This document shows, piece after piece, positions 1 through 55,735 of a stretch of 64,000 nt of DNA. A model generated the notes under the pieces. That model did no database searches. It was given only the letters and a program-made list of their open reading frames with translations, and was not told the DNA's origin. Origin of the DNA: Acidimicrobiia bacterium UBA2766 (GTDB lineage Bacteria > Actinomycetota > Acidimicrobiia > UBA2766); NCBI GenBank assembly GCA_002352645.1, contig DEIU01000004.1, positions 234 through 64,233 on the forward strand, written 5' to 3'. The translations under genes were made by a program, and so were the position numbers. How positions within the stretch are numbered: position 1 is the stretch's first letter; each line of letters begins with the position of its first letter.

Positions 1-938
1 CGGATTTTCGCACGATAGCCGGCCAGGGGATCGCGCGTCCGAGTGCGGATCTGCTCGATACCGTGTACCTGTGTGAACAGCGCCAGGAATGGTACCGCGA
101 CTTTGCCTATGCCAATCGGGAAGAACGGGTGGGCTTTGTTGGCATGTGCACGACGTCGACTCCTGTGCTCGAAGCCGCAGCAGCGATGCGAGATAGTCTC
201 GATTTCGATTTTGCGCACCGCCCAAAGTTTTCAACTTGGGCTGAGGCGCTCAGCGATCTGACGGAACGGGCAGAAGCAGCCGGTTTGCTTGTGATGAGGA
301 GCGGGATAGTCGGGAGTGACTCGCATCGCAAGCTTGACCCGCAAGAGTTCCGGGGGTTCGCTTTGGTCGACGACCTTGCGCCTGTGGTCTTCATCAACAC
401 AACGGATACGAAAGCCGCACAGATTTTCACGCTTGCGCACGAGCTTGCACACCTCCGGCTTGGCCAGAGCGCACTGGACGACCTTCCTGGCGGGGGCTTT
501 TCCGAGAGTGATAGCGAAGACTGGTGCAATCAAGTCGCAGCCGAGTTCCTTGTCCCGCGCGAAGAACTCGAGCAAGAGCACGATTCTGCAAATGGTCCCA
601 CCACGAAGGAGCTTGACCGGCTTGCCTGCTTCTTTAAAGTAAGCACACTCGTTGTGCTCCGTCGGATCTACGAGCTTGGCCAGATTAGCTGGGACGAATA
701 CCAAGTTGTCTACCAGGAGGAGCAAACAAGAGTGCTCGACATTGCCGCGGCCCGGCGAAGTCGCAGTGGTGGAAACTTCTACAAGACAGTTCCGGTACGA
801 ACAAGTAAACGATTCGCGCGGGCGGTCATTACCAGCACGCTTGAAGGCAAAATCCTGTATCGGGATGCAGCACACCTACTTGGTTTCAAGAAACTCTCTG
901 TCCTCTACAAACTCGGTCGGGATCTCGGTATTGCATAA
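1..938 (+). CDS. ImmA/IrrE-family (DUF955/M78-like) zinc metallopeptidase, probably 5'-partial (frame open to window start)
   Basis: ORF 63..938 has an HEXXH motif (FTLAHELAHLRLGQ) typical of ImmA/IrrE peptidases. The reading frame has no stop back to nt 3, so the N-terminus likely lies upstream of the window. Confidence 0.55.
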   Translation, partial: DFRTIAGQGIARPSADLLDTVYLCEQRQEWYRDFAYANREERVGFVGMCTTSTPVLEAAAAMRDSLDFDFAHRPKFSTWAEALSDLTERAEAAGLLVMRSGIVGSDSHRKLDPQEFRGFALVDDLAPVVFINTTDTKAAQIFTLAHELAHLRLGQSALDDLPGGGFSESDSEDWCNQVAAEFLVPREELEQEHDSANGPTTKELDRLACFFKVSTLVVLRRIYELGQISWDEYQVVYQEEQTRVLDIAAARRSRSGGNFYKTVPVRTSKRFARAVITSTLEGKILYRDAAHLLGFKKLSVLYKLGRDLGIA

Positions 939-940
939 AA

Positions 941-1462
941 ATGGCCTATCTACTTGACACGAACGCCTTCATTGAAGCAAAAAACCGCTGGTATGGCTTT
1001 GATTTCTGCCCGGCATACTGGACCTGGCTCGAGTCCATGAATGCAGCAGGGACCGTTTTCAGTATCGAGAAGATCAAAAACGAGATCGAAGCCGTCGACG
1101 ACGAACTTCTTTTCTGGGCGCGAACCCGGGGAGAAGCCTTCTTCTTGCAACCAGACGAAAAAGTGATGGAAAGTCTGACCGAGGTGAACACCTGGGCTGC
1201 GGAGAGCACCCACTACGACCCAGCCGCCATCAGGACCTTCTTTGATATTGCAGATTCGTATCTCGTCGCCCATGCGCACGCGTACGGTCACATTGTCGTG
1301 ACACAAGAACAAAAAGCAGACTCCCGTAAGAAAATAAAAATCCCGAACGCGTGCCTTGAGCTGCAAGTCGAGTATCTCGACGTCTTCAGGATGCTCCGAA
1401 TGGAGGGAGCAAATTTTGTTCTCGGAAACAACCGGCGACCTCCGGAGCCACCTGAAAACTAG
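941..1462 (+). CDS. DUF4411-like PIN-type nuclease domain protein (putative toxin/effector partner of the ImmA/IrrE peptidase)
   Basis: 173 aa, starts MAYLLDTNAFIEAK (PIN-like 'LDTN' acidic start). It begins 3 nt after the upstream peptidase gene. The DUF955+DUF4411 pairing is a recurrent two-gene module. Confidence 0.5.
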   Translation: MAYLLDTNAFIEAKNRWYGFDFCPAYWTWLESMNAAGTVFSIEKIKNEIEAVDDELLFWARTRGEAFFLQPDEKVMESLTEVNTWAAESTHYDPAAIRTFFDIADSYLVAHAHAYGHIVVTQEQKADSRKKIKIPNACLELQVEYLDVFRMLRMEGANFVLGNNRRPPEPPEN

Positions 1463-2016
1463 CCAGTGTCAGTCATCTGTGTGCTGTCTTGTCTGTGATG
1501 TTTGGCCAAATGCGTAGAGGTGATCTTTTCTTCGTTGTCAGTTGTCGAGTGAAGTTGATGAGCCAGTCGTCTGGGTTGTTTGCTGTGATGATCACTTCGC
1601 ATGCAGCTGTTTCGGGTGCAGCAGTGGGTACAGCAGAAGGAAGGGGATGAGTGTTTGGGTGCATGCGTTCTCTTGCCTCTTGAGCGCAGGCCTGGGGTCG
1701 GAAAGATTTTGGCAAGGTCCCCGGAGTGGGGAGGCTTTCCTGGGGCTGGAAAGAGTTCGGGGAGGTGTGTGGTGTAGGAGTTCTTTCTGGCTCGGGGGGC
1801 TTGAAGGGGGCGAGGTTGAGGGGAGAGAGGGGCATATTTTTTTTGGGGTGGCTGTGTATTGTGTTTTTTTCTTGATGGGCTGAATCGATTTTTTTGGAGC
1901 ATTGCGGGTTTTCTGTTTATGCCCTTCTTGCAGGTTTTTCATGTTGTGCGATTGATGTTTTGTTGTCTTTTTTTGAGAAAAGAGGTGTATGGTGCCTCCT
2001 TTTCGTGGCCAATTTT

Positions 2017-2052
2017 GGGAGAAGAAGAGAAGAAGAGAAGAAGAGAGAGAGG
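2017..2052. repeat. (GAA/GAG)n purine microsatellite within a 770-bp non-coding spacer
   Basis: gagaagaagagaagaagagaagaagagagagag read directly; flanked by G-runs at about 1690-1850. Confidence 0.5.
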
Positions 2053-2230
2053 TATCGCTGGGGTATGTGCAGAAGACAGAACCGATAGGGATATGTGCAG
2101 TTCCCTCATTTCCTGTGCCCTTCAGCCTAGGTACTACACATGCAGTCGATTATTGCATGCTGTGAAGAATTGCACAGTTTGGTATCAGCCTCCTTTCTGT
2201 GGGAGTTCGGACCGAGGGACGTGAAGAGAG

Positions 2231-4459
2231 ATGCCACCTTCGACATCTACCCGCAATAGCATCGCAGATCTTGTCGATCGCCGGCGCGCTTTTGCTGCTG
2301 CTGCTGAGCAGCGACGCGAGAGAATCGAAAAACTGAATTTGTCGCTGCAACAGCTGGCTCGTTTGCGCGAGAGGTTGTTGCGTACCTGCGACCAGGACGA
2401 TTTTGTTCATGAAGAAATGCGTATCTTTTACGACAAGATTCAGTCACTTGACGCGGACACTCTGTGTAGGCGCTTGCGGTCAGAGATGCAGGATTATGAC
2501 GGGGCACGTTCCCGTTTTAGCCGTACTACTTTGAATATCGCGGTGATCGGTCGTGCTCGTCAGGGGAAGAGCCGACTGCTGCAGGCGATTACCGGTTTGT
2601 CTTCCCGCGAACTTCCTGACGGAATGGGAGAAAACTGCACTGGTGTGAAGAGCACTATCTATAACAGTCAGACGACTGACCCTCACGGTGAGGTGTTCTT
2701 CCACGATGATGCTTCCTTTATAGGGGATGCAATCGGACCTTATTACGAGATGCTTGCTCTTGGGCCTCCTCCTTCTTCGATTGCTTCGTTTGCGAGCCAC
2801 CGGATTCCGGCGGCTTCCATGGAGGAAATGACCGTTCGTCAGACTGCGATGTATGACCGTTTGCAGATGATGCAGGAGCATCTTGACGAGTACCGTGATC
2901 TGTTGGGTGCAGAAAAGCGTCGTATTCCGCTAAGTCAATTGCGTGAATATGTGGCTCAGGACACTCCGGAAGGACGCCGTGATTACCGTAAGTATTTTGC
3001 GGTACGTCATGTGCATGCATATTGTGCTTTTCCTAATATGGAAGACGCTCCTATCGCGGTGATCGACCTTCCAGGCTTGGGTGATACGGGTTATGGTGAC
3101 GAAGAGCGTTTGCTGAATACGCTGAAGACCGAAGTTGATTTTGCGTTCTTCGTTCGTATGCCGCGCAGTACCGGAGTCGGCGACAGTTGGGCCGACATTG
3201 ATCTTGACTTGTACGACACTGCGAACAGCTCGCTAGAGGCCCTTCGTCTTGCGGACTGGTCGTTTTTGGTTCTGAACAAGGTACAGACCAAGAACAGCAA
3301 TAATGCTGATACTTGCGACATGCTCCGGTCTTCTCTTCCCCGTCAGTTTTTCTCCAGTGCCCAGTGTATTGTGGCGGACTGTGCAGAGGAATCAGAGGTC
3401 GAAGGCAAGGTACTTACCCCCGCTTTGGAATACCTTGAGACGCATCTTGAGGGTCTCGACCGAGAGTACGATGCGTACCATTCGAGAGAGCTTGACAAGC
3501 TTGTGACTGAGGTTGAGGGGACTCTTTCTTTTGCGGGAAGAGCTGTGACGCTGGGGCGAAGCGCCGATGCAGAAGCCCACGAAGTGTACAAAGATCTCTT
3601 CGATGACTTCTGGCACAAGATTTCAACAGGGCTTGAGCGTCTTGTGCGGGAGTTGAAAGAGACTCGTGACAGCGAAGACGAGCACTTCCGTCAGCATGTG
3701 GTTGCTCTCATTGAACACTGTGCAGAGACGGTGCCGCTCCCGACAGAAGACGAGATTTCCTCACGGCGAGACCATCGGGGTTCCTACGACACTGCCTATA
3801 GCGATTTCAGGAACGAGATGCGTTCCCAATTGTCACGCGAGTTCCTTCGCCTTGACAATGTGCTGCATCAGAGCATGGAAGAACTAAAGCAGCGGGTTGT
3901 CGAAATCTTGTGCTCAAGTGTGCGATTGGACCGTTTGGTTTCGATTGATGGTGGAGCGTCTCCCTGGTTGCATGGGTTCGGGAATGAACTGCCTCCGGAC
4001 TATCACCGCTTGAAAGAGGGATTCAGCGTCCTTGCCGGTTTTGAGCTCTCCTATCGTGGATTCATTCACCACCGGATCCGTCGAGAGCTTGATGTGCTGA
4101 CTCCTGACAGTGCAACGTCCTTTTCGCTGCCCACTCCCGCGGATTCTGCAATGGTGCGGGAACGTCTTGACGCGGCCTACCGGGAAGCCCTGCACGAGGC
4201 CGAACCTGCTCTTCTTGCTCTTGCCGCAGAGCCTAGCCAAGCGGCTTTCGGTATTACGGAGGAATTCGTGGACCGTATCTTGCGTGCGAAGCGAGTGGAA
4301 CGAGAGTGGGATGTGTATTTGAATAGGCACCGTCTGGTGCTTTGGCCCGAGGTGTTTGACCGTATCGGGGAATTGATGGAATTGAAGCAGGAGTGGGTGG
4401 AGGCTGTAACCCATGCGAGACATGCGACGGATGATCTCTCCCGCCTGCTTCCCCGGTGA
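2231..4459 (+). CDS. Dynamin-like large GTPase (bacterial dynamin-like protein; LeoA/IniA-like)
   Basis: 742 aa with an N-terminal coiled coil, P-loop G1 (GRARQGKSRLL), dynamin-type G3 (AVIDLPGLGD), an NK-type G4 (LVLNKVQTK) and a long helical C-terminal stalk. Confidence 0.7.
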   Translation: MPPSTSTRNSIADLVDRRRAFAAAAEQRRERIEKLNLSLQQLARLRERLLRTCDQDDFVHEEMRIFYDKIQSLDADTLCRRLRSEMQDYDGARSRFSRTTLNIAVIGRARQGKSRLLQAITGLSSRELPDGMGENCTGVKSTIYNSQTTDPHGEVFFHDDASFIGDAIGPYYEMLALGPPPSSIASFASHRIPAASMEEMTVRQTAMYDRLQMMQEHLDEYRDLLGAEKRRIPLSQLREYVAQDTPEGRRDYRKYFAVRHVHAYCAFPNMEDAPIAVIDLPGLGDTGYGDEERLLNTLKTEVDFAFFVRMPRSTGVGDSWADIDLDLYDTANSSLEALRLADWSFLVLNKVQTKNSNNADTCDMLRSSLPRQFFSSAQCIVADCAEESEVEGKVLTPALEYLETHLEGLDREYDAYHSRELDKLVTEVEGTLSFAGRAVTLGRSADAEAHEVYKDLFDDFWHKISTGLERLVRELKETRDSEDEHFRQHVVALIEHCAETVPLPTEDEISSRRDHRGSYDTAYSDFRNEMRSQLSREFLRLDNVLHQSMEELKQRVVEILCSSVRLDRLVSIDGGASPWLHGFGNELPPDYHRLKEGFSVLAGFELSYRGFIHHRIRRELDVLTPDSATSFSLPTPADSAMVRERLDAAYREALHEAEPALLALAAEPSQAAFGITEEFVDRILRAKRVEREWDVYLNRHRLVLWPEVFDRIGELMELKQEWVEAVTHARHATDDLSRLLPR

Positions 4460-4508
4460 TCCTTTTTGCGATTGCTGAAGATGCACCGATCTTTATATAG
4501 GGAGCGAA

Positions 4509-5600
4509 ATGGTCGGGAGACCCAAGCTCGATAGAGTCGATGTGATGATGCTTGGCCCTTCCGGTGTGGGAAAAACGAGCCTCCTCGCCGCGATGTACGA
4601 GCAATTTGCTGAGAATGTTCACGCTACAAATCTTACGTTGGTGCCGGACAAGTCCAGTCATGACCTATTGGAGAAGCGTCTTCGCGAACTGCGAAGCATT
4701 CCTGATGCGTTTGTCATGAAGGGATGGATGCCCGGCACAAAACAGGGACAGTCTTTTCATTTCCGTATTGGGAAAAATGGCAACGAGGACGATGGCACCT
4801 TTGTTGAGGAAGACGCGGACGAGAAGTCAAAAGACTCGAAACTCGCTGTGTGCTTCCATGATTTTCCTGGTGGGGATATGTCGAGTGATGATCCCGCGCA
4901 TCGCCGGCGAGTCTTGAACCTCTTACGAGAAGCGCGAGCGGTATTTGTTGCCATTGATACGCCTGCGCTTCTTGAACGTGGAGGCAAATGGCACGACAAA
5001 GTGAACCAGCCGGCGCGTGTGACTCGACTTTTCCAAGAAGCCTACGGTGGTATGGACTCAGAGACATTAGACCAACGTCTTGTGGTTTTTTGTCCATTGC
5101 GTTGCGAACGTTATGCGGAGGTTTCGCCGACAACTGGAGTCCGATACAAAAATCAGCGGGAGCGTCGTTCTCTTGGGGATGCGGTAGAAGTCGGGTATGC
5201 AAGCCTCATGCGCTTTTTTCAGGAAAGTGAACTTTTTCGGGAGAAGGTCGCTCTTGTTGTGACTCCTGTACAGACGATTGGCGGTGTGCGCCTTACTCGT
5301 GTCGAAGAAAATAAAGACGAAAACGCTTCTACCTTCTATTTTCGTCATGTAGGGGTTGGGCCTGGGTATGGGCCGGTTGATACCGATCAGCCGCTCCGTT
5401 ACTTGCTGCGTTTTATTTTGCAGTCCTATGTTTCTCGCCAGGAGACAGAGTGGGGGCCGTTCAAGCGGATGCGGCGCTGGTTTGGTGTAGATGAGGAGCT
5501 GGTAGCAGCGGCGCAACAGTTTGCAAATGGCTGTAAGCTCTCTGAAGATTTCCGCATTTTGCAGGGAGACGAGTTGCTTGGCATGGCGCTCGAGTCCTGA
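4509..5600 (+). CDS. Short paralogous dynamin-like GTPase (LeoB/LeoC/IniC-like partner)
   Basis: 363 aa with Walker A (GPSGVGKTSLL) and G3 (CFHDFPGGD), followed by a (V/A)FVAI pattern paralleling the upstream protein's DLPGLGD...FAFFV. It starts 50 bp after the upstream stop on the same strand. Confidence 0.65.
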   Translation: MVGRPKLDRVDVMMLGPSGVGKTSLLAAMYEQFAENVHATNLTLVPDKSSHDLLEKRLRELRSIPDAFVMKGWMPGTKQGQSFHFRIGKNGNEDDGTFVEEDADEKSKDSKLAVCFHDFPGGDMSSDDPAHRRRVLNLLREARAVFVAIDTPALLERGGKWHDKVNQPARVTRLFQEAYGGMDSETLDQRLVVFCPLRCERYAEVSPTTGVRYKNQRERRSLGDAVEVGYASLMRFFQESELFREKVALVVTPVQTIGGVRLTRVEENKDENASTFYFRHVGVGPGYGPVDTDQPLRYLLRFILQSYVSRQETEWGPFKRMRRWFGVDEELVAAAQQFANGCKLSEDFRILQGDELLGMALES

Positions 5601-5624
5601 ACGAACGGCGGGGGAGAGACCTTT

Positions 5625-6299
5625 GTGAAGGCGTTCGTCCAAACGCGCGGTTTTGCGCAGCATGAGGAATATCGATGGTATCCGAGTGAACCGAAAAATA
5701 TCGCATTCTCTGACATTCTTCAGCTTGTCGACTTAGGCGCGCCTTCTGTTGTCTTATGGCGTCACGAGGGAAATCTGCATTGCATGGTTTCAGGCCTCGA
5801 TGCTCGACGAGTGGATTTTCGCGACCGTCCTATCGAAAACTCTCTTGTGGTGATGGGCGGGCCGCGCGAAGGTCTTGACATTCAGTCGATCGCGTCAGAG
5901 GCCCTGCGTTTTCCTGAGACTCTCGCTTGTCTTGTGAGAGATAATATGGACAAAGAAGACGTCAACGGGAATGGGGACCCTCTGGTGCGTCCTCTGCGTC
6001 AAGTGGTGCTCCGTAAAGAGCTTGTTCTCAATGCAAACGATGAAATGGGTGTGCGTAAGGTCGCCAAAGACTCAGAAGAGAAGAGGGTGCATTTGGCGAG
6101 TTTGATTGAGACCACCCGTCTTCCAACGGTAGATGGCCCTCTGCTCCTTTGTACCGATCATAAGCCGGAAAAAGTTCTCGTGGATGCTGGTGTATGGCGG
6201 GGCTTGTCGACGCTGATAGAAGCAAGTGGGTGGAAAATCGTGGGGGAGAAGCCTCGCCGGAAAACCCGGGGTATTGGTCTGCTACGCCGGCGATTCTGA
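5625..6299 (+). CDS. Hypothetical protein, third gene of the GTPase operon
   Basis: 224-aa ORF with a GTG start 25 bp after the upstream stop. No recognisable motif; coding assignment rests on operon context. Confidence 0.45.
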   Translation: MKAFVQTRGFAQHEEYRWYPSEPKNIAFSDILQLVDLGAPSVVLWRHEGNLHCMVSGLDARRVDFRDRPIENSLVVMGGPREGLDIQSIASEALRFPETLACLVRDNMDKEDVNGNGDPLVRPLRQVVLRKELVLNANDEMGVRKVAKDSEEKRVHLASLIETTRLPTVDGPLLLCTDHKPEKVLVDAGVWRGLSTLIEASGWKIVGEKPRRKTRGIGLLRRRF

Positions 6300-6345
6300 G
6301 TTTCCCAACTTTTTGTTCTCTGTGGAGGGCGCAGCTTTCCCACAT

Positions 6346-7584
6346 TCATGGTTTGCTCTCGGTGTTGTGTACCGGCGGGAACCAAAAGGGGCCAAAAGGG
6401 CCTGTCTCTGTCTCTGGCTCTACCCCCAAGAGAACACTCGCGAACATTTTTTCGTAGAGTTGCAAGGTCGCAGCGGGGCCGAAACGAGCGTGCGCCCGCT
6501 CCCGAATGGCATGCTGATTGAATTCCCTGTAGCGGTTCACCGTGTGTGTAATGGCATGTGCCAAAGCCGTTGGATCATTCGGTTTGATAACGCGACCATC
6601 TTCTTCCCCCACAAAATATTCTGGGCCCCCACAGCGTGTCACGACGGTGGGGAGACCGGAAGCCAAAGCCTCCGCTGCCGCCACACAAAAGCTTTCTACT
6701 CTGGAAGGAAGAACGAAAATATGTGCTCTTTCCAAAAACCCGGCTATTGCGGAAGGAGGCTGGAATCCGTGGAATCGAACGCGGTCTGCAATCTGATATT
6801 GCTCGACGAGTTCTTCGGCATCTTTGCGTCCCTCTCCGTCGCCCACGAGGTCGAGTTCAAAGCGGGAGGGAAGCTTGGACATGGCTTTGATAAGCGTGGA
6901 CGTTCCTTTTTGTGGATGGAGCCGACCCACTGCAATAAGACGTACTTGTTCCTTTTCGAGGAGCGTACGCGATGGAAGATGGAATTTGTCTGTGTCGACA
7001 GCAAGAGGAATGGGATAGACGGGACGGTCCAGCATGTCAGCTACATCTGCTGCACAGGACGGACCACTTGCGCAGAGGAGGCGGGCGCGATGTTTCATCG
7101 TCCACATGGAGAATCGTTCAATCCGTCGTTCAGTGACTGCCGCTAAGTCGGGAGCTTCTTCTTGGTAAATGAGAGGAAGACGTAAAAGTGCTGCGACGAT
7201 TGCCGCGGTGACCCCAATGGGATGTGCAAAACGTACATAAACAAGGTCAAAAGGCTGTTCTGCATGGAGACGGCGCGCGCGACGCGCGATCTCGATTGCT
7301 CCCCTTGCCTGCCGGCCTGGTCCGCTTCCTGGCCGCACAAGCGGATCCTCGTAGAGGTTTCCATGGTCAGGTAGAGAAGGCTCGGGAGTTTCCTCACTCA
7401 TGCCGAGAAGCGCGACAGAATGGCCGGCACGGGCCAGAAGATGGGCCACTTCGCGGGCTGGAGTGAGTGCCGTTGGGTTTGTCCTGGTTGGCCAGAAAGG
7501 CATGATCCAGAGAAGGCGAAGAGCGCGCCCTTTGAAAAGGCCAGATGCCGAAATAGCGCGGAGATCTTGCTCACTTATTTTCAT
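6346..7584 (-). CDS. GT4-family (GT-B, group 1) glycosyltransferase
   Basis: C-terminal EX7E-type motif region (VLPSRVESFCVAAAEALASGLPTVVTRCGGPEYF). The true start is probably internal (MPFWPTRT...). Confidence 0.75.
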   Translation of the reverse strand: MKISEQDLRAISASGLFKGRALRLLWIMPFWPTRTNPTALTPAREVAHLLARAGHSVALLGMSEETPEPSLPDHGNLYEDPLVRPGSGPGRQARGAIEIARRARRLHAEQPFDLVYVRFAHPIGVTAAIVAALLRLPLIYQEEAPDLAAVTERRIERFSMWTMKHRARLLCASGPSCAADVADMLDRPVYPIPLAVDTDKFHLPSRTLLEKEQVRLIAVGRLHPQKGTSTLIKAMSKLPSRFELDLVGDGEGRKDAEELVEQYQIADRVRFHGFQPPSAIAGFLERAHIFVLPSRVESFCVAAAEALASGLPTVVTRCGGPEYFVGEEDGRVIKPNDPTALAHAITHTVNRYREFNQHAIRERAHARFGPAATLQLYEKMFASVLLGVEPETETGPFGPFWFPPVHNTESKP

Positions 7585-19664: not shown

Positions 19665-22600
19665 TTGGCCGTTACGGCGCGCCCCGGTATCCGTGACCGT
19701 GTCTCCTTCGCCACTATCGAAGAAGGCTTACCGCTACCAGATCTCCTCGCTGTTCAAAAGAATTCTTTTGAATGGTTTATGCACGAAGGCATTGCCGAGG
19801 CCCTTCATGAGATCTCTCCCATCGAAGATTATTCGGGAAACCTTATCCTTGAGTTCGTTGACCACGAGTTTGAGGGTCCGAAATATTCTATCGAAGAATG
19901 CCGCGAACGGGATATGCAGTATGGCTGCCCTTTGTTCGTGACTGCCCGGTTTGGGAACCGTGAAACTGGTGAGATCAAAGAACAGCGAGTGTTCATGGGG
20001 GAATTCCCCATGATGACTCCTGCTGGAACTTTCATCATCAATGGGACAGAAAAGGTTGTTGTCAGTCAATTAGTGCGTAGTCCCGGCATTTATTTTGACG
20101 TTTCGACTGATAAAACTTCTGAAAAACTTCTGCATGGTGCCAAGGTCATTCCTGCCCGTGGTGCTTGGCTGGAGTTTGATATTGACAAGCGTGGCACGGT
20201 CGGTGTCCGGATTGACCGGAAGCGACGTCAGATCGTGACAATTTTATTGCGAGCGCTTGATTTTGGTGAAGTTGACCTTTCCACTAATGAGAGTATTCTC
20301 GAGTATTTTGGGGGGAATGAAGGTATCAGCGCGAGCTTGGAGCGCGATCATACTACGACGCGTGAAGAAGCTCTTATTGATATTTACCGGAAGCTTCGGC
20401 CTGGTGAACCGCCTTCAGTTGAAGCATCTCGTGGCCTGCTTGACCAGCTTTTCTTTTCGTCAAAACGCTACGATCTCTCTCGTGTGGGCCGCTACAAGAT
20501 CAACCAGAAGTTTGCTCTTTCCCCTGAGGCACACAAAGTTCATATTCTGACTCCCGACGACATTCTCCGAACAGTAAAGTACCTTGTGGACTTGTCCGAG
20601 GGGAAAAACGGTTTCTCGATTGACGACATCGATCATTTTGGAAATCGGCGAGTGCGGGCAGTGGGTGAACTCATTGCCAATCAGGTTCGTATTGGGCTTA
20701 CCCGTATGGAACGGGTTGTGCGTGAACGGATGACTACACAGGAAGTGGAGGCTATTACCCCCACGACCTTGATCAATATCCGTCCTTTGACTGCCGCAAT
20801 CAAAGAGTTCTTTGGTACTTCGCAGCTGTGTCAGCTCTATGACCAGACAAATTCCTTGACAGGCCTCACGCATAAACGACGCCTTTCGGCCCTTGGTCCT
20901 GGCGGGTTGTCGCGTGAACGAGCTGGTTTCGATGTGCGAGACGTGCATCCTAGTCACTACGGGCGTATGTGTCCGATTGAGACGCCAGAAGGTCCGAACA
21001 TTGGGCTGATCGGCTCTCTTGCAACCTACGCGCGAATCAATGATTACGGTTTTGTCCAGACTCCCTACCGTAGGGTTTCTGAAGGGGTCGTCCTCGACGA
21101 AATTTGTTATCTCGACGCGCACGAAGAAGATCGGTACACTATCGCACAAGCAAATGCTCCTATCGATCATGATACGGGGCATTTCAAGAATGACCGAGTG
21201 CTTTGCCGGCAGAAGGGCGAACCCGCTTATATTTCTCCGTGGCAAGTCGACTACATGGATGTTTCCCCGCGGCAGATTGTGTCTGTTTCGGCCTCTTGCA
21301 TTCCCTTCTTGGAGCACGACGACGCAAACCGGGCTCTCATGGGGTCCAATATGCAACGTCAGGCAGTGCCTCTTCTCCAAGTAGAAGCGCCCTATATCGG
21401 GACAGGAATGGAAGCGAGAGCGGCGCTCGACTCTGGGGATCTCCTGCGGGCCGAAGAAGATGGGGTTGTTACCGAAGTAGCCGGCGACCGTGTCGTGATT
21501 GAAACCTCGGGGACTGGGGAACGTCACACTTACCGTCTCTCCAAATTCCGTCGCTCGAACCAGTCAACCTGCATCAGCCAGCGTCCAATTGTGGAAGCAG
21601 GCATGCGGATTACCAAGGGAGACGTCCTCACGGACGCTGCGAACACCTCCCAAGGTGAGCTGGCTTTGGGGAAGAATCTACTTGTGGGCTTCATGACTTT
21701 TGAGGGCCACACGTTCGAAGACGCCATTGTGGTCTCCGATCGCCTCGTGCGTGATGACGTGTTGACGTCAGTGCACATCGAGGAGTACGAAATCGAAGCG
21801 CGTGACACCAAACTGGGTGAAGAAGACATCACGCGTGACATCCCCAATGTGTCCGAAGAGGTTCTTCGAGACCTTGATGAACGCGGAATTATTCGTATTG
21901 GGGCTGAAATTGGCCCAGGCGACTATCTCGTTGGCAAGGTAACTCCAAAAGGAGAGACTGAACTCACGCCAGAAGAGCGTTTGCTGCGGGCCATATTTGG
22001 TGAAAAAGCACGCGAAGTGCGGGATACTTCTCTCAAGGTTCCGCATGGAGAGTGGGGAAAGGTCATTGACGTCCGAGTGTACAGCCGGGAAGACAATGCT
22101 GACCTGAACCCTGGCGTGAATAGGCTTGTGCGTGTGTATGTGGCACAGAAGCGCAAGATCTCCGTTGGTGACAAGCTTGCGGGACGACATGGGAACAAGG
22201 GCGTTATTGCCACAGTACTACCTGTGAATGACATGCCTTTCCTTGCCGATGGGACTCCCCTGGACATTCTTTTGTCCCCATTGGGTGTGCCGACTCGAAT
22301 GAACGTGGGGCAGGTTCTGGAAACCCTTTTGGGTTGGGCCGCCTACAACGGATGGGAAGCAGGTCCTTGCGCTTCCGACCCGGGAAACGGCAAGATCGCT
22401 TCTGTTCGCGAACCGGCATCCTATATTTCGACGCCTATTTTTGATGGCGCGCATTGGTCGGATAATGAGGCCCAGGACGCCGGCATGAATCCGGACACGG
22501 GAGTACCGCACCAGTCTATTCAGGAGATGCTGCGGACATCTCGCTCTGGGCATGGTCTTCGACTCATTGGTGAAGACGGGAAAGCTCAGCTCTATGACGG

Positions 22601-23093
22601 GCGCACGGGTGAGCCTTACGATCGTCCAATTGCTATTGGTTTCATGTACATCTTGAAACTTTTGCACCTGGTTGATGACAAGATTCACGCCCGTTCGACC
22701 GGGCCTTACTCCATGATTACCCAACAGCCTTTGGGTGGAAAAGCCCAGTTTGGGGGGCAACGCTTCGGAGAGATGGAAGTGTGGGCGCTCGAGGCCTATG
22801 GGGCTGCGTATTGCCTGCAGGAACTGCTCACTATTAAGTCAGACGACGTGTTTGGCCGTGTCAAGGTCTACGAAGCCGTTGTCAAAGGCGAAAATGTTCC
22901 TGATCCTGGTTTGCCGGAATCGTTCAAGGTGCTGGTGAAAGAAATGCAGTCGCTGTGTCTCAATGTTGAAGTGCTCTCGCAGGAAGGCACGGAGATCGAG
23001 ATGCACAACTTCGAGGAAGACGCTTTCCGTACTGCCGAAGAACTGGGCATCGACATCTCTCGTCCAGAGCGAAGCGAAGTCGAGGAGGCATGA
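19665..23093 (+). CDS. rpoB: DNA-directed RNA polymerase subunit beta
   Basis: 1142 aa with conserved blocks throughout. TTG start is forced by an in-frame TGA at 19656 and is preceded by AAAGGAG. Confidence 0.9.
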
Positions 23094-26000
23094 GCACGGT
23101 GGCAGCGATCCAGCAGTCTCGGAATACTGATCTTCGTTTTGATCAAGTGCGTATTGGTCTTGCCACACCCGATCAGATTCGGGCGTGGTCAAACGGTGAG
23201 GTGAAGAAGCCCGAGACAATTAACTACCGCACCCTGAAGCCTGAGATGGAAGGCTTGTTTTGCCAGCGTATTTTTGGTCCAGTGAAAGACTGGGAATGCG
23301 CCTGTGGCAAGTACAAAAGGGTTCGCTTCAAGGGGATCATCTGCGAGCGCTGCGGTGTTGAGGTCACGCGTAAAAGTGTACGCCGGGAACGTATGGGTCA
23401 TATCGAGCTAGCGGCTCCTGTGACTCACATTTGGTATCTCAAGGGTGTTCCAAGCCGTCTTGGCTATCTTCTCGACGTTTCTCCAAAGGATCTTGAACGC
23501 GTTATCTACTTTGCTTCCTACATTGTGACGCATGTGGACCAAGAGAACCGGACAGCAGCTCTGCCGGAACTCGAAGTGCGTATGCGTAATGAATCTGACG
23601 AAGTCTGGAAACTCTACGAAGAGCGTGAGCAAAATCGTATGCTCCGCGTTGAAGAGGAACTTGCCTCGTTGGAAGAGGCAGGAGAATCTGCCGAGGAGAT
23701 TGAGTCTCGCCGTAAGCAGTTCGACAAAGAGATGCGAAAAGATTCGCAGCGGGATCGCGAACGTGTTGAAGAAGAAACGCAGCATCTGAGCGAAGTTTTC
23801 ACGACCTTTAAGGGCCTGAAAGAGCGGCAGCTTATAGAGAACGAATTCGTTTGGCGGGATTTGCGTGAGCGCTACGAAGAGTATTTTTCTGGTGGCATGG
23901 GTGCCGAGGCGATCCGGGAATTGCTTGAAACCATTGACCTAGATCAAACAGAAAGTGCGTTGCGCGAAGAAATTATCGTTAGTAAAGGACAAAAACGCGC
24001 ACGCGCTACCAAGCGTCTCAAAGTAGTGGCGGCTTTCAATCAGGGCGAAAACCGTCCTATCGGCATGATCCTGGAGTGTGTACCTGTTATCCCTCCGGAC
24101 CTTCGTCCAATGGTGCAGCTTGATGGTGGACGTTTTGCGACGTCCGACCTGAACGACCTGTACCGGAGAGTGATTAACCGGAATAACCGCCTGAAACGAC
24201 TGCTCGATTTGGGTGCTCCGGAGATCATTGTTAATAATGAAAAGCGCATGTTGCAGGAGGCCGTAGACGCTTTGCTCGATAATGGGCGTCGTGGTCGACC
24301 TGTCACGGGACCAGGGAACCGTCCTCTAAAGTCTATTTCGGACATGTTGAAAGGCAAGCAAGGCCGTTTTCGTCAAAACTTGCTTGGAAAGCGTGTCGAC
24401 TATTCTGGTCGATCGGTGATCGTCTGTGGTCCTCGTTTGCGTTTGCATCAGTGCGGGCTTCCAAAGCAGATGGCGTTGGAACTCTTCAAGCCTTTCGTTA
24501 TGAAACGTTTGGTGCAACAGGACTTGGCAGCCAACATCAAGTCTGCCAAACGCATGGTGGAGCGTCCGCGCCCTCAAGTCTGGGACATCCTCGAAGAGGT
24601 GATCAGCGAGCATCCCGTACTTTTGAACCGGGCACCTACTCTGCACCGTTTGGGTATCCAAGCTTTCGAGCCAGTGCTTGTGGAAGGGAAGGCCATCCAG
24701 ATTCACCCGTTGGTGTGCGCGGCGTTTAACGCGGACTTCGACGGGGACCAAATGGCTGTGCACGTCCCCTTGTCAATTGAGGCACAGGCTGAGGCACGAA
24801 TTCTCATGCTCTCGGCAAATAACCTGTTGTCTCCTGCTCATGGCCGCCCTCTTGTGACTCCGACGCAAGACATGGTGATCGGGGCGTTCTATCTCACAGC
24901 AGATCCTCCGAATGAACCTCCAGCAGAGATTCCAGTCTTTACTTCTCCAGTCCAAGTGCGTTTTGCCTACGACTCTTTTCTTGGGGACGGCAAGCGTGTT
25001 CTGAACTTGCATGACCGAGTCAGAGTGCGTGGTCTGAAGCCATCTCTACAAGATGAAATAATAGAGACCACAGTCGGACGCGTTATTTTCAACTCGACTT
25101 TTCCGGACTCGTATGGCTACGTCAACGAAGTCATTAAGAAAAAGGACTTGGGCCGTTTGGTCATAGAGTTGTACGAGCAGTGTACGCACACAGAAATTGT
25201 GAGGACGCTCGACAACCTGAAAGAGCTCGGGTTCCATTTCGCCACCGTGTCGGGTCTGACGTTTTCGATTGATGACGTGAAAGTGCCTGATGAAAAGTCC
25301 GATATTCTTGATGTCTACGAGAAGCGGGCCGAACGAGAGGAAAAAAACTACCGGGCAGGTGCGATCACGGAGCAGGAGCGTCGTCAGCGTTTGATTGAAA
25401 TCTGGCAAGAGGCTTCTGACAAAGTGAAAGATGCAATGGTCTCGAGGATGGGGAAAGATCCGTTTAACCCTATCCAGATGATGACCGACTCTGGTGCTCG
25501 TGGCCAGGTTATCCAGGTACGTCAGATTGGTGCGATGAGGGGTTTGGTAGCAAACCCAAAGGGCGAGATTATGCCTCGTCCTATCAAATCCAATTACCGT
25601 GAAGGACTCTCGGTTCTCGAGTACTTTATTTCCACGCACGGTGCACGTAAAGGACTCGCTGACACCGCGCTACGAACGGCAGACTCTGGTTATTTGACCC
25701 GTCGTCTTGTCGACGTTGCCCAAGAAGTCATCATTCGCGATGATGATTGTGGCACGACCCGAGGCATTGCGGTCCAGGTCAGCGAAGAAAAGCGGTCTTT
25801 GGAGAGCCAGCTGAAGGGCCGCTATCTCATGGAAGACCTTGTGGATGGGACCACAGGGGAAATCCTTCTCCACACAGGTGACCCAATCAAACGTACTCTC
25901 CTTCTTTCTATCGCGAAGGCAAAAATCGAATCTCTAAAAGTGCGTTCGGTTCTCTACTGCCAGTTGCGAGATGGGGTGTGCTCGAAGTGCTACGGCTTTG

Positions 26001-26983
26001 CTCTTGACACAGGAAAAAAGGTAGAGACGGGAGAGGCAGTCGGAACGATTGCGGCACAGTCTATTGGAGAGCCTGGAACCCAGCTCACTATGCGGACTTT
26101 CCACACTGGGGGTATCGCAGCAGGCGGTGACATCACACAGGGTTTGCCTCGTGTGCAAGAGCTGTTTGAAGCACGGACCCCGAAAGGGAAGGCAGAGATT
26201 TCCCACTCTTCTGGCCAGGTACGGATCCAACGTGACGAAGAGACGATGGACCGGACCATTATCGTTGAAGACGAGGATGGAGAAGAAGAGACACACGAGG
26301 TCGGTCGGCGAGTACGGATCCTTGTGGAAGACGGGGACAAAGTTTCTCCCGGCGATCCTCTGACCTTCGGTCCAATTGACCCGAAAGAACTGCTCGAGGT
26401 GAAGTCGAGTCGGGCTGTGCAAGAATATCTGGTAAATGAAGTGCAGCGTGTGTACTCCAGCCAGGGTGTTGACATTCACGATAAGCATATTGAGCTGATC
26501 GTGCGTCAGATGATGCGCAAGGTTGTGGTACAAGAGTCGGAAGAATCTGACTTTTTGCCTGGCGAGCGTGTGGACCAGCGTGTTTTCCAAGAGGCAAACA
26601 GGGTTTTGGTACAGGAGGGCAAAACCCCTGCTCAAGCTCGGCAAGAGCTGATGGGAATCACGAAGGCATCACTTGCGACAGACTCCTGGCTATCTGCTGC
26701 TTCCTTCCAAGAGACAACGCGGGTTTTGACAGAGGCTGCAATTGAGGGCAAGAGCGACAGCCTGAGAGGGTTGAAAGAGAATGTCATTATTGGCCGTCTC
26801 GTGCCGGCGGGAACGGGAGTTCGTTCTTATCGAGAGGTTGACCCGGACTTCCCTGAAGGTGCCGAAGTCATTAGCGTGCACCCCTTCTTCCAGACAGGTG
26901 GAGAAGAACAAATGTCGGCTGAGGAAGCTGCTGACTTCCTTCGTAAGATCGGAACTGGGTCTGTAAATACGGACGCTTCTTAA
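23090..26983 (+). CDS. rpoC: DNA-directed RNA polymerase subunit beta'
   Basis: Zn-binding [23 protein letters not shown], the NADFDGD catalytic motif and the C-terminal block. ATGA overlap with rpoB. Confidence 0.9.
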
Positions 26984-31259: not shown

Positions 31260-32447
31260 ATGAGCAAGGAGAAGTTCGAGCGGACCAAGCCGCACGTCAA
31301 CATCGGGACCATTGGTCATATTGACCACGGGAAGACGACGCTCACCGCGGCTATCACGAAGGTTCTCTCCGATCAAATCGAGGGGTCGACGGCCACCCCT
31401 TTCGATGAAATTGATAAAGCGCCGGAAGAGCGTGAGCGCGGGATTACAATCGCCATTGCGCACGTCGAGTATGAGACAGAAAACCGTCATTATGCTCATG
31501 TTGACTGTCCTGGTCACGCCGACTACATCAAAAACATGATCACAGGTGCCGCCCAAATGGACGGTGCGATTCTGGTTGTGTCTGCTGATGACGGGCCTAT
31601 GCAGCAGACACGGGAACATATTCTTCTCTGTTATCAGGTAGGAGTTCCCTATATCGTGGTTTTCCTCAACAAGTGTGACATGGTCGATGACGAAGAGCTT
31701 CTCGACCTTGTTGAACTTGAAGTGCGTGAACTACTTAGCGTGTACAATTTCCCAGGTGATGATGTTCCCGTTATTCGCGGTTCAGCGCTGAGGGCTCTCG
31801 AAGGTGACGACAAATATGTCGGATCCGTTCTGGAGCTGATGGCGACGGTTGACGAGTACATTCCCCAACCCGAACGGGATGTGGACAAAGATTTTCTCAT
31901 GCCTATTGAGGACGTCTTTTCCATCCAGGGTCGTGGAACTGTGGTCACAGGCCGTGTCGAGAGCGGCATCTTGAAGAAGATGGAAGAGGTGGAGATCGTC
32001 GGGATCAAGTCCACTCAGAAGACAACCGCAACTGACCTGGAGATGTTTCGGAAGCTGCTCGACGAGATTCAGGCTGGAGACAATGCCGGTGTCTTGTTGC
32101 GAGGAGTTGATAAAGAGGAAGTCTCTCGTGGGCAGGTGCTTGTCAAGCCTGGCACTATTACGCCGCACAAGAAGTTTGAGGCTCAGGTCTATTGCCTGAC
32201 GAAAGAAGAGGGAGGTCGTCACTCTCCCTTCTTCCCCGGGTATCGTCCGCAGTTCTACTTTCGCACGACTGATGTCACAGGATCTATCACTTTGCCTGAA
32301 GGCACAGAAATGGTGATGCCTGGCGACAATACAGACTTGACGGTAGAGCTACACGAGCCTATCGCTATGGAAGACGGTCTGAAGTTCGCGATCCGTGAAG
32401 GCGGACGGACTGTGGGAGCAGGCCGTGTGATCAAAATCCTCGAATAG
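31260..32447 (+). CDS. tuf: Elongation factor Tu
   Basis: [33 protein letters not shown]...[26 protein letters not shown]. Confidence 0.9.
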
Positions 32448-55224: not shown

Positions 55225-55540
55225 GAAGTCTTTTTCCGCTGTTCGGGTGGGGTGTAGTCTGCTTTTTCCCTGTTTTGTCTGCTGTTTGCGGGGTCTTCTG
55301 CTCTGGGTCCTCTTTTGTCCCCTTTTTCAGCATGAAAAGAGGGTATTCCCGTGAAATCGCCCCGTGGAAAGGCGGGTTTGCTTTTTTCCCGGTATTGTGG
55401 TGAGGGAACAGGATCGTAAGGTGTGGGGTGCAATCGGTGTTTTTGTACTACTGTACGGACTCCTGCATGCCGATCATGGAAGAGACGAGAAGAGAGCAGG
55501 GTGTGCGTACGTTGTTGTCGTACGTTGATGTTGTTGAAAA

Positions 55541-55735
55541 AAGCGCCTGACCTCTTTTAGAGGTGACGAGGAAGAAGGGGATTGAAAGACAGTTCTGACT
55601 GGCTTTCATATCGAAGATTCGGCGGGTGCCCCTCCGGCTTCCATGGGTCGTGACGGTTTCCGGTAAAACCGGGGAGTGATTCCCGAGACAAAACGGTGCC
55701 GATCGTGGTTTGTTGATCATGGTTTGATCATGATT
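55541..55735 (+). ncRNA. glmS ribozyme (GlcN6P-responsive self-cleaving riboswitch) in glmS 5' leader
   Basis: AGCGCC...GUGACGAGGA...AUCGAAGAUUCGGCGGGUGCCCCUCCGGCU...GGGGAGUGAUUCCC closely parallels the Bacillus glmS ribozyme core (..GACGGAGGA..AUCGAAUUUUCGGCGGAUGCCUCCCGGCU..GGGGGUGACUCCU..). It lies about 170 nt upstream of glmS. Confidence 0.65.

Follow-up and report, generated by a model that had tools for sequence, protein, structure and literature searches.

Three genes are lined up on the forward strand of the window, that is, the whole stretch of 64,000 nucleotides from Acidimicrobiia bacterium UBA2766 that was analysed here: the gene of protein A (2231..4459, ATG start, 742 aa), a bacterial dynamin-like large GTPase, that of protein B (4509..5600, ATG start, 363 aa), a P-loop GTPase assigned by its sequence to the DO-GTPase2 family (TRAFAC class), and that of protein C (5625..6299, GTG start, 224 aa), whose uncharacterised family has an alpha/beta domain in two lobes. 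The intergenic gaps measure 49 bp (A-B) and 24 bp (B-C), and the three reading frames are exactly those delimited in an earlier note on this DNA. The features it had described upstream are all present as well: a gene for an ImmA/IrrE protein (Peptidase_M78; 63..938, +), cut by the window start to the C-terminal 291 of 388 aa, its partner gene for a PIN-like DUF4411 protein (941..1462, +; Pfam PF14367, E 1.3e-50; PIN, E 0.003), and a G-rich intergenic spacer of 768 bp (1463..2230) 5′ of the A gene. The spacer, which presumably serves the trio as promoter/leader region, is 99% identical across four further assemblies of the same species, the differences being an indel of a 14-bp unit and changed lengths of G- and T-tracts; a scan of it for consensus promoters and terminators gave no more sites than shuffled sequence.

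The ImmA/IrrE protein, which is uncut (388 aa) in locus L001, matches Pfam PF06114 (E 2.3e-15) and, in PADLOC, RmrA, PDC-M69B and CapP-like models. Just 5′ of the window start, the same locus encodes LmuC (E 1.3e-67; 3666-4325) and the SMC-like ATPase LmuB (E 3.5e-140; 4322-6376), the two proteins by which a Lamassu system is recognised; an LmuA effector was not found among the two upstream ORFs tested. With Lamassu genes adjoining, the accessory, defence-like context is stronger than had been claimed. That the trio lies away from housekeeping genes holds only in part: FTCD/folD follow after 1.6 kb, and a secE...rpoB-rpoC-fusA-tuf-ribosomal cluster occupies much of the remaining window.

Protein A is a dynamin-like fold protein. 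In its AlphaFold model an N-terminal helical bundle precedes a G domain (residues ~100-385) and an all-helical neck/trunk (387-737), the succession of large GTPase domain and helical neck/trunk with DLP fold that defines the dynamin superfamily; the long-helix N-terminus and the helical stalk foreseen from the sequence are thus both there. Motifs G1 to G3 are located at GRARQGKS 107-114, C-T-G 136-138 and DLPGLGDTG 279-287, G1 and G3 having been named before, and are invariant across 38 A-family sequences as GxAxQGKS, CTG and DxPGLGDTG. In G4 of the same sequences N349 is the sole invariant residue (N-[RQHK]-x-x); the Asp responsible for guanine specificity is absent, which counts against the conflict role considered below. 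Against Pfam Dynamin_N (PF00350) A scores 18.8 bits, below the gathering cutoff of 27, and, of its homologues at 40% identity, about one in three has a precomputed match to this model. Neither a TM segment nor a strongly hydrophobic paddle was found in A (maximum 19-residue hydropathy 0.92); its nearest structural relatives are the membrane-remodelling DLPs SynDLP, mitofusins, Campylobacter DLP1/2 and IniA. When its profile was compared with PDB sequences, Irgb10 and Irga6 were the best matches, weak ones (E 0.006-0.9) confined to the N-terminal helices and the G1-G3 region.

The P-loop (GPSGVGKTSLL, 16-26) and the G3 motif (FHDFPGG, 116-122) ascribed to B are likewise present and conserved among its homologues. 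The idea built on them, that A and B are two paralogous dynamin-like GTPases, has to be given up: BLASTP of A against B is not significant (best E 0.58), and profile-profile comparison aligned only 26 P-loop columns, with a probability of 4.9%. A truncated or stalk-less dynamin was rejected for B because the P-loop alone is common to A and B, a Dynamin_N match is absent and B groups with the DO-GTPase2 family. Scored with the Pfam models for DO-GTPases (PF19993 and PF19975), the window protein is borderline for DO-GTPase2 (PF19993; 27.2 bits, gathering cutoff 27), which is matched by all 23 aligned B homologues (best E 1.6e-12); 10 of the 23 also match DO-GTPase1. Invariant in the B family are GxxGVGKT, FxD[YF]PG, E156, TPVQTxG and P-x-[KR]-C-E, the latter replacing NKxD. 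The only candidate for the Walker B Glu that is reported as typical of DO-GTPases, placed by this analysis directly after the Gly of DxPG (G3+1), occurs in 9 of the 23 members; the window protein has Gly there. Relative to cyanobacterial members of ~320 aa, B of the window has two lineage-specific insertions; no TM segment and no Cys-rich N-terminus, i.e., no N-terminal zinc ribbon, was found in it, and the PDB sequences that it matches (Rab6/Ypt6/Rab7 and FtsY) align with it over the P-loop only.

The third gene had been set down as lacking any recognisable motif and as part of a non-canonical gene complement; C belongs, however, to a conserved family encoded directly 3′ of B elsewhere. Its domain of ~210 aa is possibly longin-like: the first lobe has an apparent longin topology, a five-stranded antiparallel sheet in the order b-b-a-b-b-b-a(-a) and a fold match to a known longin being taken as the criterion, and the top fold matches are longin, roadblock and DENN regulators of small GTPases. 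None of Pfam, PADLOC and PHROGs includes a model of this domain, and in 56 family members its conserved part gave zero Pfam matches at E<=0.05. A C-terminal TM helix is present in 109 of 142 members, and among the tails are He_PIG Ig arrays, WD40 repeats and pentapeptide repeats. C of the window is without the membrane helix and outer tail typical of most members, and the missing anchor counts against a conflict-role model which relies on it; the faster change of C as compared to A and B (mean identity 38% vs 57%) counts in its favour.

The trio is not an oddity of one genome but the standard gene order of a widespread module. Among the 70 loci with enough downstream sequence, A is accompanied by B in 59 and by both B and C in 58, on the same strand and with gaps of ~12-20 bp (A to B) and ~9 bp (B to C); loci L084 and L158 have duplicated B-C cassettes behind one A. 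The pairwise identity matrices of the three proteins are correlated (r = 0.73-0.82; best of 500 permutations 0.28), and it is near certain that A, B and C constitute one conserved GTPase module. A collection of one genome per species (185,579 species) contained 338 loci, the best 80 of which are mostly from cyanobacteria, others from Synergistia, Vulcanimicrobiota, Chloroflexaceae, Blastocatellia, Bacillota and Hyphomicrobiales. The module is horizontally mobile and patchy across phyla; that rpoC of the window host is unsplit and collinear with actinobacterial beta′ speaks for a conflict role. The module was found in each assembly from the window species and in many from Planktothrix agardhii, so it may be retained stably instead of being quickly gained and lost, which counts against a conflict role. 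Also against it, IMG/VR yielded no A-family gene.

The neighbours of A-B-C loci are variable, and there is no conserved fourth gene. Some encode CHAT/caspase-STAND proteins, a type IIG methylase, or SNF2 or Upf1-like helicases; as CHAT, WD40 and STAND genes are very common in cyanobacteria, adjacency to them is weak evidence. PADLOC matches are confined to a minority of 149 neighbours and cyanobacterial neighbours are often housekeeping genes (GcpE, CtpA-type S41 protease, PFK, ClpB), both of which count against a conflict role. A full C-family domain (129 bits) is part of a phage portal/pilot protein (Phage_portal_3 plus InPase), the contig of which carries MuF, tail and capsid genes and is listed in IMG/VR. 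Portal-InPase fusions have been interpreted as counter-defence proteins which the phage injects (PMC5512222); one instance only of a phage-borne C domain was found, which counts against the conflict role.

Starting from the fold and family assignments of the two GTPases, the conservation and co-evolution of the operon, its patchy spread across phyla, the defence genes next to it here and the C-like domain of a phage, we infer that A-B-C may be an undescribed membrane-associated conflict (anti-phage) system, with B and C as sensing and switch part and A as output, and put the probability of this at roughly one half. B would act as a Rab-like molecular switch and C as its dedicated partner, the domain of C maybe serving as a longin/DENN-like platform of the GEF, GAP or adaptor kind for small GTPases, with the invariant patch R62/D64/R68/N72/S73 as candidate arginine finger. 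A single membrane helix would, in most genomes, anchor C and place a tail of variable type (Ig-like, WD40 or other) on the opposite side, so that the B-C pair would sense and set the threshold. B-GTP/C would then recruit or release A, a dynamin-like mechanochemical GTPase without its own membrane anchor. Assembled into oligomers at the cytoplasmic membrane, A would remodel the bilayer, the outcome being either a sealed membrane and later lysis, as with DynA, or a disrupted one and abortive infection. For the window, where C is without anchor, the complex is proposed to be soluble or to reach the membrane by another route. In favour of a conflict role are the Lamassu LmuC/LmuB genes and the ImmA-DUF4411 pair directly upstream, the variable neighbourhood of the loci and the definition of the DO-GTPase2 family in predicted conflict systems (PMC7159879); phage defence by dynamin-like proteins is known for Eleos (bioRxiv 10.1101/2022.05.11.491447) and DynA (PMC8844932). 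Against it counts that no toxic effector domain (nuclease, protease, pore-former) was recognised in A, B or C.

The fixed pairing of a Rab-like P-loop GTPase (B) with a putative regulator (C) and the apparent longin topology of the first lobe of C recall eukaryotic and Asgard pairs of small GTPase and regulator, such as Rab7-Mon1/Ccz1, Rag-FLCN/FNIP and GATOR1, and Rab35-DENND1, as well as bacterial MglA-MglB/MglC. In the animal IRG system, effector GTPases are controlled by regulatory GTPases. The IRG/GBP/Mx interferon-induced GTPases resemble A in being immune GTPases of the dynamin superfamily which act on membranes or viral structures; the likeness in sequence is limited to the stretch noted above. 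It is conceivable, and for now tentative, that the trio represents a new, eukaryote-like class of anti-phage system in which infection is sensed at the envelope by a Rab-like GTPase together with an anchored longin-type regulator, the two then licensing a dynamin-like protein for action on the membrane, and in which the phage would inject a decoy of the regulator domain within its portal/pilot protein.

A role outside immunity is possible, if somewhat doubtful: A might repair or reshape the cytoplasmic or thylakoid membrane under stress, with B and C as its local regulator and anchor, as modelled on proposals for IniA/IniC, for DynA under antibiotic stress and for SynDLP. Such membrane maintenance is consistent with the remodelling activity of A's nearest structural relatives, with the concentration of the family in thylakoid-bearing, often filamentous cyanobacteria, the DLPs of which have been discussed in these terms (PMC5827413), with the many loci amid housekeeping genes, with the lack of a toxic effector domain and with the constancy of the trio in the window species and many Planktothrix strains. 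It accords less well with so few loci among so many species, patchy even within cyanobacteria, with their occurrence in unrelated non-photosynthetic phyla, the window host included, and with the link of B's family to conflict systems; moreover, the trio lies here within a Lamassu/ImmA-DUF4411 island, and C is fast-evolving, has variable outer tails and recurs in a phage virion protein. The paired bacterial DLPs compared (Campylobacter jejuni DLP1/DLP2, the Nostoc BDLP tandem pair, B. subtilis DynA, mycobacterial IniA/IniC, Synechocystis SynDLP) function as homo- or hetero-oligomers of DLPs, each bringing its own membrane paddle, whereas A, without a clearly hydrophobic segment, has as partners a small GTPase and a further protein that is anchored in the membrane.

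An unlikely reading is that of a divergent "GTPase-centric" DO-GTPase/GAP1 conflict system as described by Kaur, Burroughs, Iyer and Aravind (2020), C being a GAP1 diverged past recognition and A replacing a second DO-GTPase. These systems share with the trio the Pfam family of B (PF19993, with DO-GTPase1 matched in part), a GTPase with a dedicated downstream partner, and an often membrane-proximal setting with variable extracytoplasmic repeats and mobile neighbourhoods (PMC7159879), which the TM helix and Ig-like tails of C parallel. They are defined, however, by a GAP1 protein downstream of or fused to the GTPase, and by a conserved Walker B Glu, N-terminal zinc ribbons in most members and a GASH or FNIII companion: neither GAP1-N, -M or -C nor GASH or FNIII was found with Pfam in C (56 members) or A, B is devoid of the zinc ribbon and, in the window, of the candidate Glu, and C is far below the size of a three-domain GAP1. 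Further, the second GTPase of the trio is dynamin-like and its distribution mainly cyanobacterial, while DO-GTPase systems are reported as all but absent from cyanobacteria and dynamin is unmentioned there (PMC7159879). Very improbable is the proposal of the earlier note, an Eleos (LeoA/LeoBC) or IniB/A/C-type system on tandem paralogous dynamins. Like Eleos (Millman et al. 2022) and E. coli LeoABC, the trio is an operon around a bacterial dynamin-like GTPase with a second nucleotide-binding protein encoded directly downstream and other defence systems adjoining; but Eleos consists of two consecutive dynamin-fold proteins, whereas the second GTPase here is a stalk-less DO-GTPase2 protein of ~320-360 aa, and the possibly longin-like, usually membrane-anchored C has no counterpart in either system. 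The matches of A to PADLOC LeoBC (E 1.8e-4, 18.8 bits, 80/601 positions) and LeoA (E 0.09) cover the P-loop region only, far short of family level, B and C match no PADLOC Leo model, and the two DLPs preceded by IniB in one stress-induced operon that make up IniABC are missing, there being no IniB-like gene; membership in both systems was therefore ruled out.

Bacterial dynamins are widespread and mostly without known role; to our knowledge, no defence operon built on a dynamin other than Eleos has been described, and how Eleos works is not known. The module described here links a dynamin with two further proteins, a small GTPase as switch and a dedicated partner that is usually anchored in the membrane; the three can be taken apart by experiment into putative sensor, switch and effector. 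With it the DO-GTPase family reaches into cyanobacteria, from which such systems were thought to be nearly missing, C defines a protein domain without a model in the three profile collections, and the phage portal protein carrying that domain offers itself as a candidate inhibitor. Should C prove to be longin-like, the module would also bear on the pre-eukaryotic depth of small GTPase-longin regulation and of its link to dynamin; and if the eukaryote-like design were true, the set of small GTPase, longin and dynamin known from eukaryotic traffic and from interferon-induced GTPase immunity would gain a bacterial immune counterpart.

The three open reading frames of the trio lie on one strand of the window: A (2231-4459) encodes a bacterial dynamin-like GTPase of 742 residues, B (4509-5600) a DO-GTPase2-family GTPase of 363 residues, and C (5625-6299, with a GTG start) a protein of 224 residues; the gaps are 49 bp between A and B and 24 bp between B and C. 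These positions and the shared strand are exactly those of the earlier note, and the motifs reported there are real and conserved, being GRARQGKS and DLPGLGDTG in A and GPSGVGKTSLL and FHDFPGG in B. The GTG start of C coincides with the N-termini of its homologues in the alignment. A scan of the trio locus for promoter and terminator consensus sequences returned sites no better than those in shuffled sequence.

Relatives of A are encoded at 338 loci, as found by a pattern scan of one genome per species across 185,579 species. The best 80 of these loci were examined, 70 of which had at least 2.6 kb of sequence downstream of A; B is present in 59 of the 70 and B together with C in 58, the genes being co-stranded with typical gaps of 12-20 bp from A to B and 9 bp from B to C, and about eleven of the 70 hold solo A paralogues. 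Over 59 loci and the window, the identity matrices of A, B and C correlate with r = 0.73-0.82, the maximum in 500 permutations being 0.28; C is the fastest-diverging protein of the three. Two B-C cassettes follow a single A in a Bacillota MAG (locus L084, 3476-7601) and in a metagenome contig (L158, 4165-7299); the latter stops just past the second B, and its second C is known only from a companion contig (L159, 1870-2721). The duplicated cassettes, and a protein that is a tandem C-C fusion (P0259), fit a functional pairing of B and C, which suggests that the two form a duplicable sensing and switching unit. Analysis of the neighbours gave no fixed fourth gene, the flanking genes being variable; in one clade, a small AAA_33 or Coq4-like gene sits between A and B. 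The AAA_33 gene, encoding a P-loop kinase-like protein of 156-162 residues, occurs in four Laspinema/Oscillatoria loci (L013, L014, L019 and L026; A and B about 1 kb apart), and a Coq4-like gene replaces it in one Chroococcidiopsidaceae locus (L021, 10407-11060).

The identification of A as one of the bacterial dynamin-like proteins was correct. The Pfam Dynamin_N model scores window A at 18.8 bits, below its threshold of 27 bits; a confident AlphaFold model (pLDDT 87.9, from an alignment of 38 sequences) predicts long N-terminal helices, then a G domain, then an all-helical C-terminal half. Both motifs of A are kept across homologues together with an invariant C-T-G, and the G4 motif retains Asn alone (N-[RQHK]-x-x), Asp being absent. 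No transmembrane helix or strongly hydrophobic segment was seen in A.

B had been taken for a stalk-less paralogue of A, which was not borne out: BLASTP finds no significant match between the two, and profile-profile alignment (hhalign) pairs 26 P-loop columns only, at 4.9% probability. Window B matches Pfam DO-GTPase2 (PF19993) just at the gathering score, and the model is matched by 23 of 23 aligned B homologues (best E 1.6e-12), ten of which also match DO-GTPase1. An invariant P-x-[KR]-C-E stands in the place of NKxD in the family; the sole candidate for the reported Walker-B Glu lies at G3+1, a position assigned here, and occurs in 9 of the 23 members, with Gly in window B. This family was defined by Kaur et al. 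(PMC7159879) as the one that supplies the GTPase in "GTPase-centric" conflict systems. The trio was searched for a GAP1, a zinc ribbon and a GASH or FNIII partner, and none was found; DO-GTPase/GAP1 systems have a GAP1 partner, and because the trio is without one it is not a member of them.

The third gene had been regarded as an oddity, and this view has to be given up. A word-indexed search with C matched the window's own sequence alone; in Nostoc sp. JL23, the gene following B is 28% identical to C (E 5e-15), and an exhaustive phmmer search yields 171 cluster representatives, so that C belongs to a conserved family. Its members share an N-terminal domain of about 210 residues, in which the near-invariant positions include G9, Y16, W18, P23, R62, D64, R68, N72, S73, T177, W191, R192 and S195. 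A single hydrophobic helix and then a variable tail follow this domain in 109 of 142 full-length members; among the tails are He_PIG Ig-like arrays and WD40 repeats, and pentapeptide repeats occur without a transmembrane helix. Examples of such tails are at L049 (11211-13442), L063, L009 and L080 (11226-12218), with up to five He_PIG Ig-like repeats. In conflict systems, it is the sensor or surface-exposed parts that show variability of this kind. Window C stops directly after the conserved domain, without an anchor, as does a minority of members of 225-231 residues. No Pfam, PADLOC or PHROG model covering the domain was found; GAP1 and other Pfam domains were rejected as its identity, since in the 56 members searched the conserved domain matched none of them, and comparison of the fold with viral structures (BFVD) gave no significant match. 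In a confident AlphaFold model (pLDDT 89.5, pTM 0.85), the first lobe has the order b-b-a-b-b-b-a-a, which is longin topology, and is followed by a second, alpha/beta lobe.

Among the best 80 of the 338 loci, carriers of the module are overwhelmingly cyanobacteria, with single MAGs each from Synergistia, Vulcanimicrobiota, Chloroflexaceae, Blastocatellia, Bacillota and Hyphomicrobiales. The window species is uncultured and represented by a MAG (GCA_002389445.1) and several metagenome contigs; the trio is present in every assembly of it, and its genome is absent from the A-family matches in the scan of GTDB representatives. In cyanobacteria rpoC is split in two. The rpoC of the window is a single gene encoding 1297 residues, collinear end to end with the beta' subunits of Streptomyces and Mycobacterium, and S19 groups with Acidimicrobiia sequences; these indirect signals make an actinobacterial host probable. 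Window A, B and C share no more than about 41%, 45% and 38% identity with any other copy among the 59 loci, which points to patchy inheritance with an old transfer of the module across phyla. A metagenome scan with FolD returned the same species at 99-100% identity and the next relative at no more than 45%; judged by sequence comparison, the host lineage is deeply isolated. The window stretches 19665-26983 and 31260-32447 go with this picture: RpoC is collinear with actinobacterial beta', and EF-Tu is the only member of its 90% cluster.

Upstream of A, a gene pair at 63-1462 encodes an ImmA/IrrE Peptidase_M78 protein (388 residues in full, truncated at the window start) and a DUF4411 PIN-like protein; the two look like a toxin-antitoxin or defence-regulator pair, and their PADLOC matches are of the RmrA, CapP and PDC-M69B-like kind. 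A G-rich spacer of 768 bp (1463-2230) separates the DUF4411 gene from A. It is 99% identical across other assemblies of the species, which vary by an indel of a 14-bp unit (GAAGGAAGGGAGTT) and in the length of G- and T-tracts; these changes modify a proline-rich minus-strand ORF (1459-1902), of 147 residues in the window, 217 in contig L004 and 161 in contig L006. Downstream, 46 bp from C and convergent with it, lies a GT4 glycosyltransferase gene (6346-7584, minus strand), found in every assembly of the species and also matching Pfam GT4-conflict (E 1e-12). After it come FTCD_C and folD and, farther on, genes for an ECF sigma factor, secE, rpoB, rpoC, fusA, tuf and ribosomal proteins. These flanks mark the trio locus as an accessory insert near core genes: the accessory context claimed in the earlier note stands, its placement "away from housekeeping genes" does not. 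A glmS ribozyme (55531-55711; Rfam RF00234, 61 bits) lies upstream of an ORF of 613 residues (55900-57741), presumably glmS.

In the window genome, the trio closes a defence island. Upstream of the window start (contig L001, 3666-6376) are genes matching Lamassu LmuC (E 1.3e-67) and LmuB (E 3.5e-140), followed by a small ORF, the ImmA/IrrE and DUF4411 pair and, at the end, A-B-C; two ORFs upstream were tested for an LmuA effector, and neither was recognised as one. B's family, too, is otherwise known only from predicted conflict systems (PMC7159879). Caspase/CHAT-STAND-WD40 proteins, a type IIG methylase, and SNF2 and Upf1-like helicases are encoded beside the trio at several cyanobacterial loci; these flanks lend weak support to a conflict role, weak because housekeeping genes adjoin the trio in many other loci. 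The same housekeeping neighbours, and the lack of a toxic effector domain in the trio, count for the main rival explanation, held less likely, that the trio is a non-immune membrane-maintenance module. Precedents for dynamin-like proteins in defence are Eleos (bioRxiv 10.1101/2022.05.11.491447) and DynA (PMC8844932). As a conflict system, the trio may work with B as the switch and C as the anchor and regulator of B; a sensor role may fall to the outer tail of C, and C's patch of invariant Arg, Asp and Asn is a candidate for a catalytic finger. The effector would be A, brought to the membrane and sealing or disrupting it.

One member of the C family is phage-borne. The phage portal/pilot protein P0366 (1082 residues) joins Phage_portal_3, InPase and a linker to a C-family domain of full length (residues about 785-995; 129 bits with our own family HMM), and also carries two hydrophobic stretches; it is encoded at L089 (6632-9880) and also on L090, L091 and L092 (IMGVR_UViG_3300020202_001071), next to MuF, tail and capsid genes on a contig listed as viral in IMG/VR. 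Portal-InPase fusions have been argued by Iyer et al. (PMC5512222) to be packaged and injected, acting on host machinery and defences, and in this single case the C domain is possibly an injected decoy or anti-defence domain; a decoy would be expected to take just such a form, a phage delivering its own version of a protein that serves as partner in a host module. A search of IMG/VR found no A-family genes on phage contigs, and PHROGs gave nothing for A or C.

Membership in Eleos/LeoABC or in IniABC, which the earlier note had put forward as candidates, was not upheld. Eleos/LeoABC requires two dynamins, and neither its models nor those of any other catalogued system in PADLOC gave a family-level match to A, B or C (PADLOC-DB v2 has no model for the trio); IniABC was likewise rejected, and an NCBIfam search with the trio gave nothing useful. 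In the way it would work, the trio comes closest to a cross between a bacterial dynamin operon and a DO-GTPase system. Jilly et al. (2018) catalogue dynamin-like proteins of cyanobacteria, partly from species that also figure here, with a downstream gene given as "hypothetical protein", and their unclassified group may include some A-family genes; no paper describing the trio was found. The trio locus is thus a member of a conserved module, undescribed so far as could be found in the literature, and putatively a variant of the dynamin-based and GTPase-centric conflict systems.
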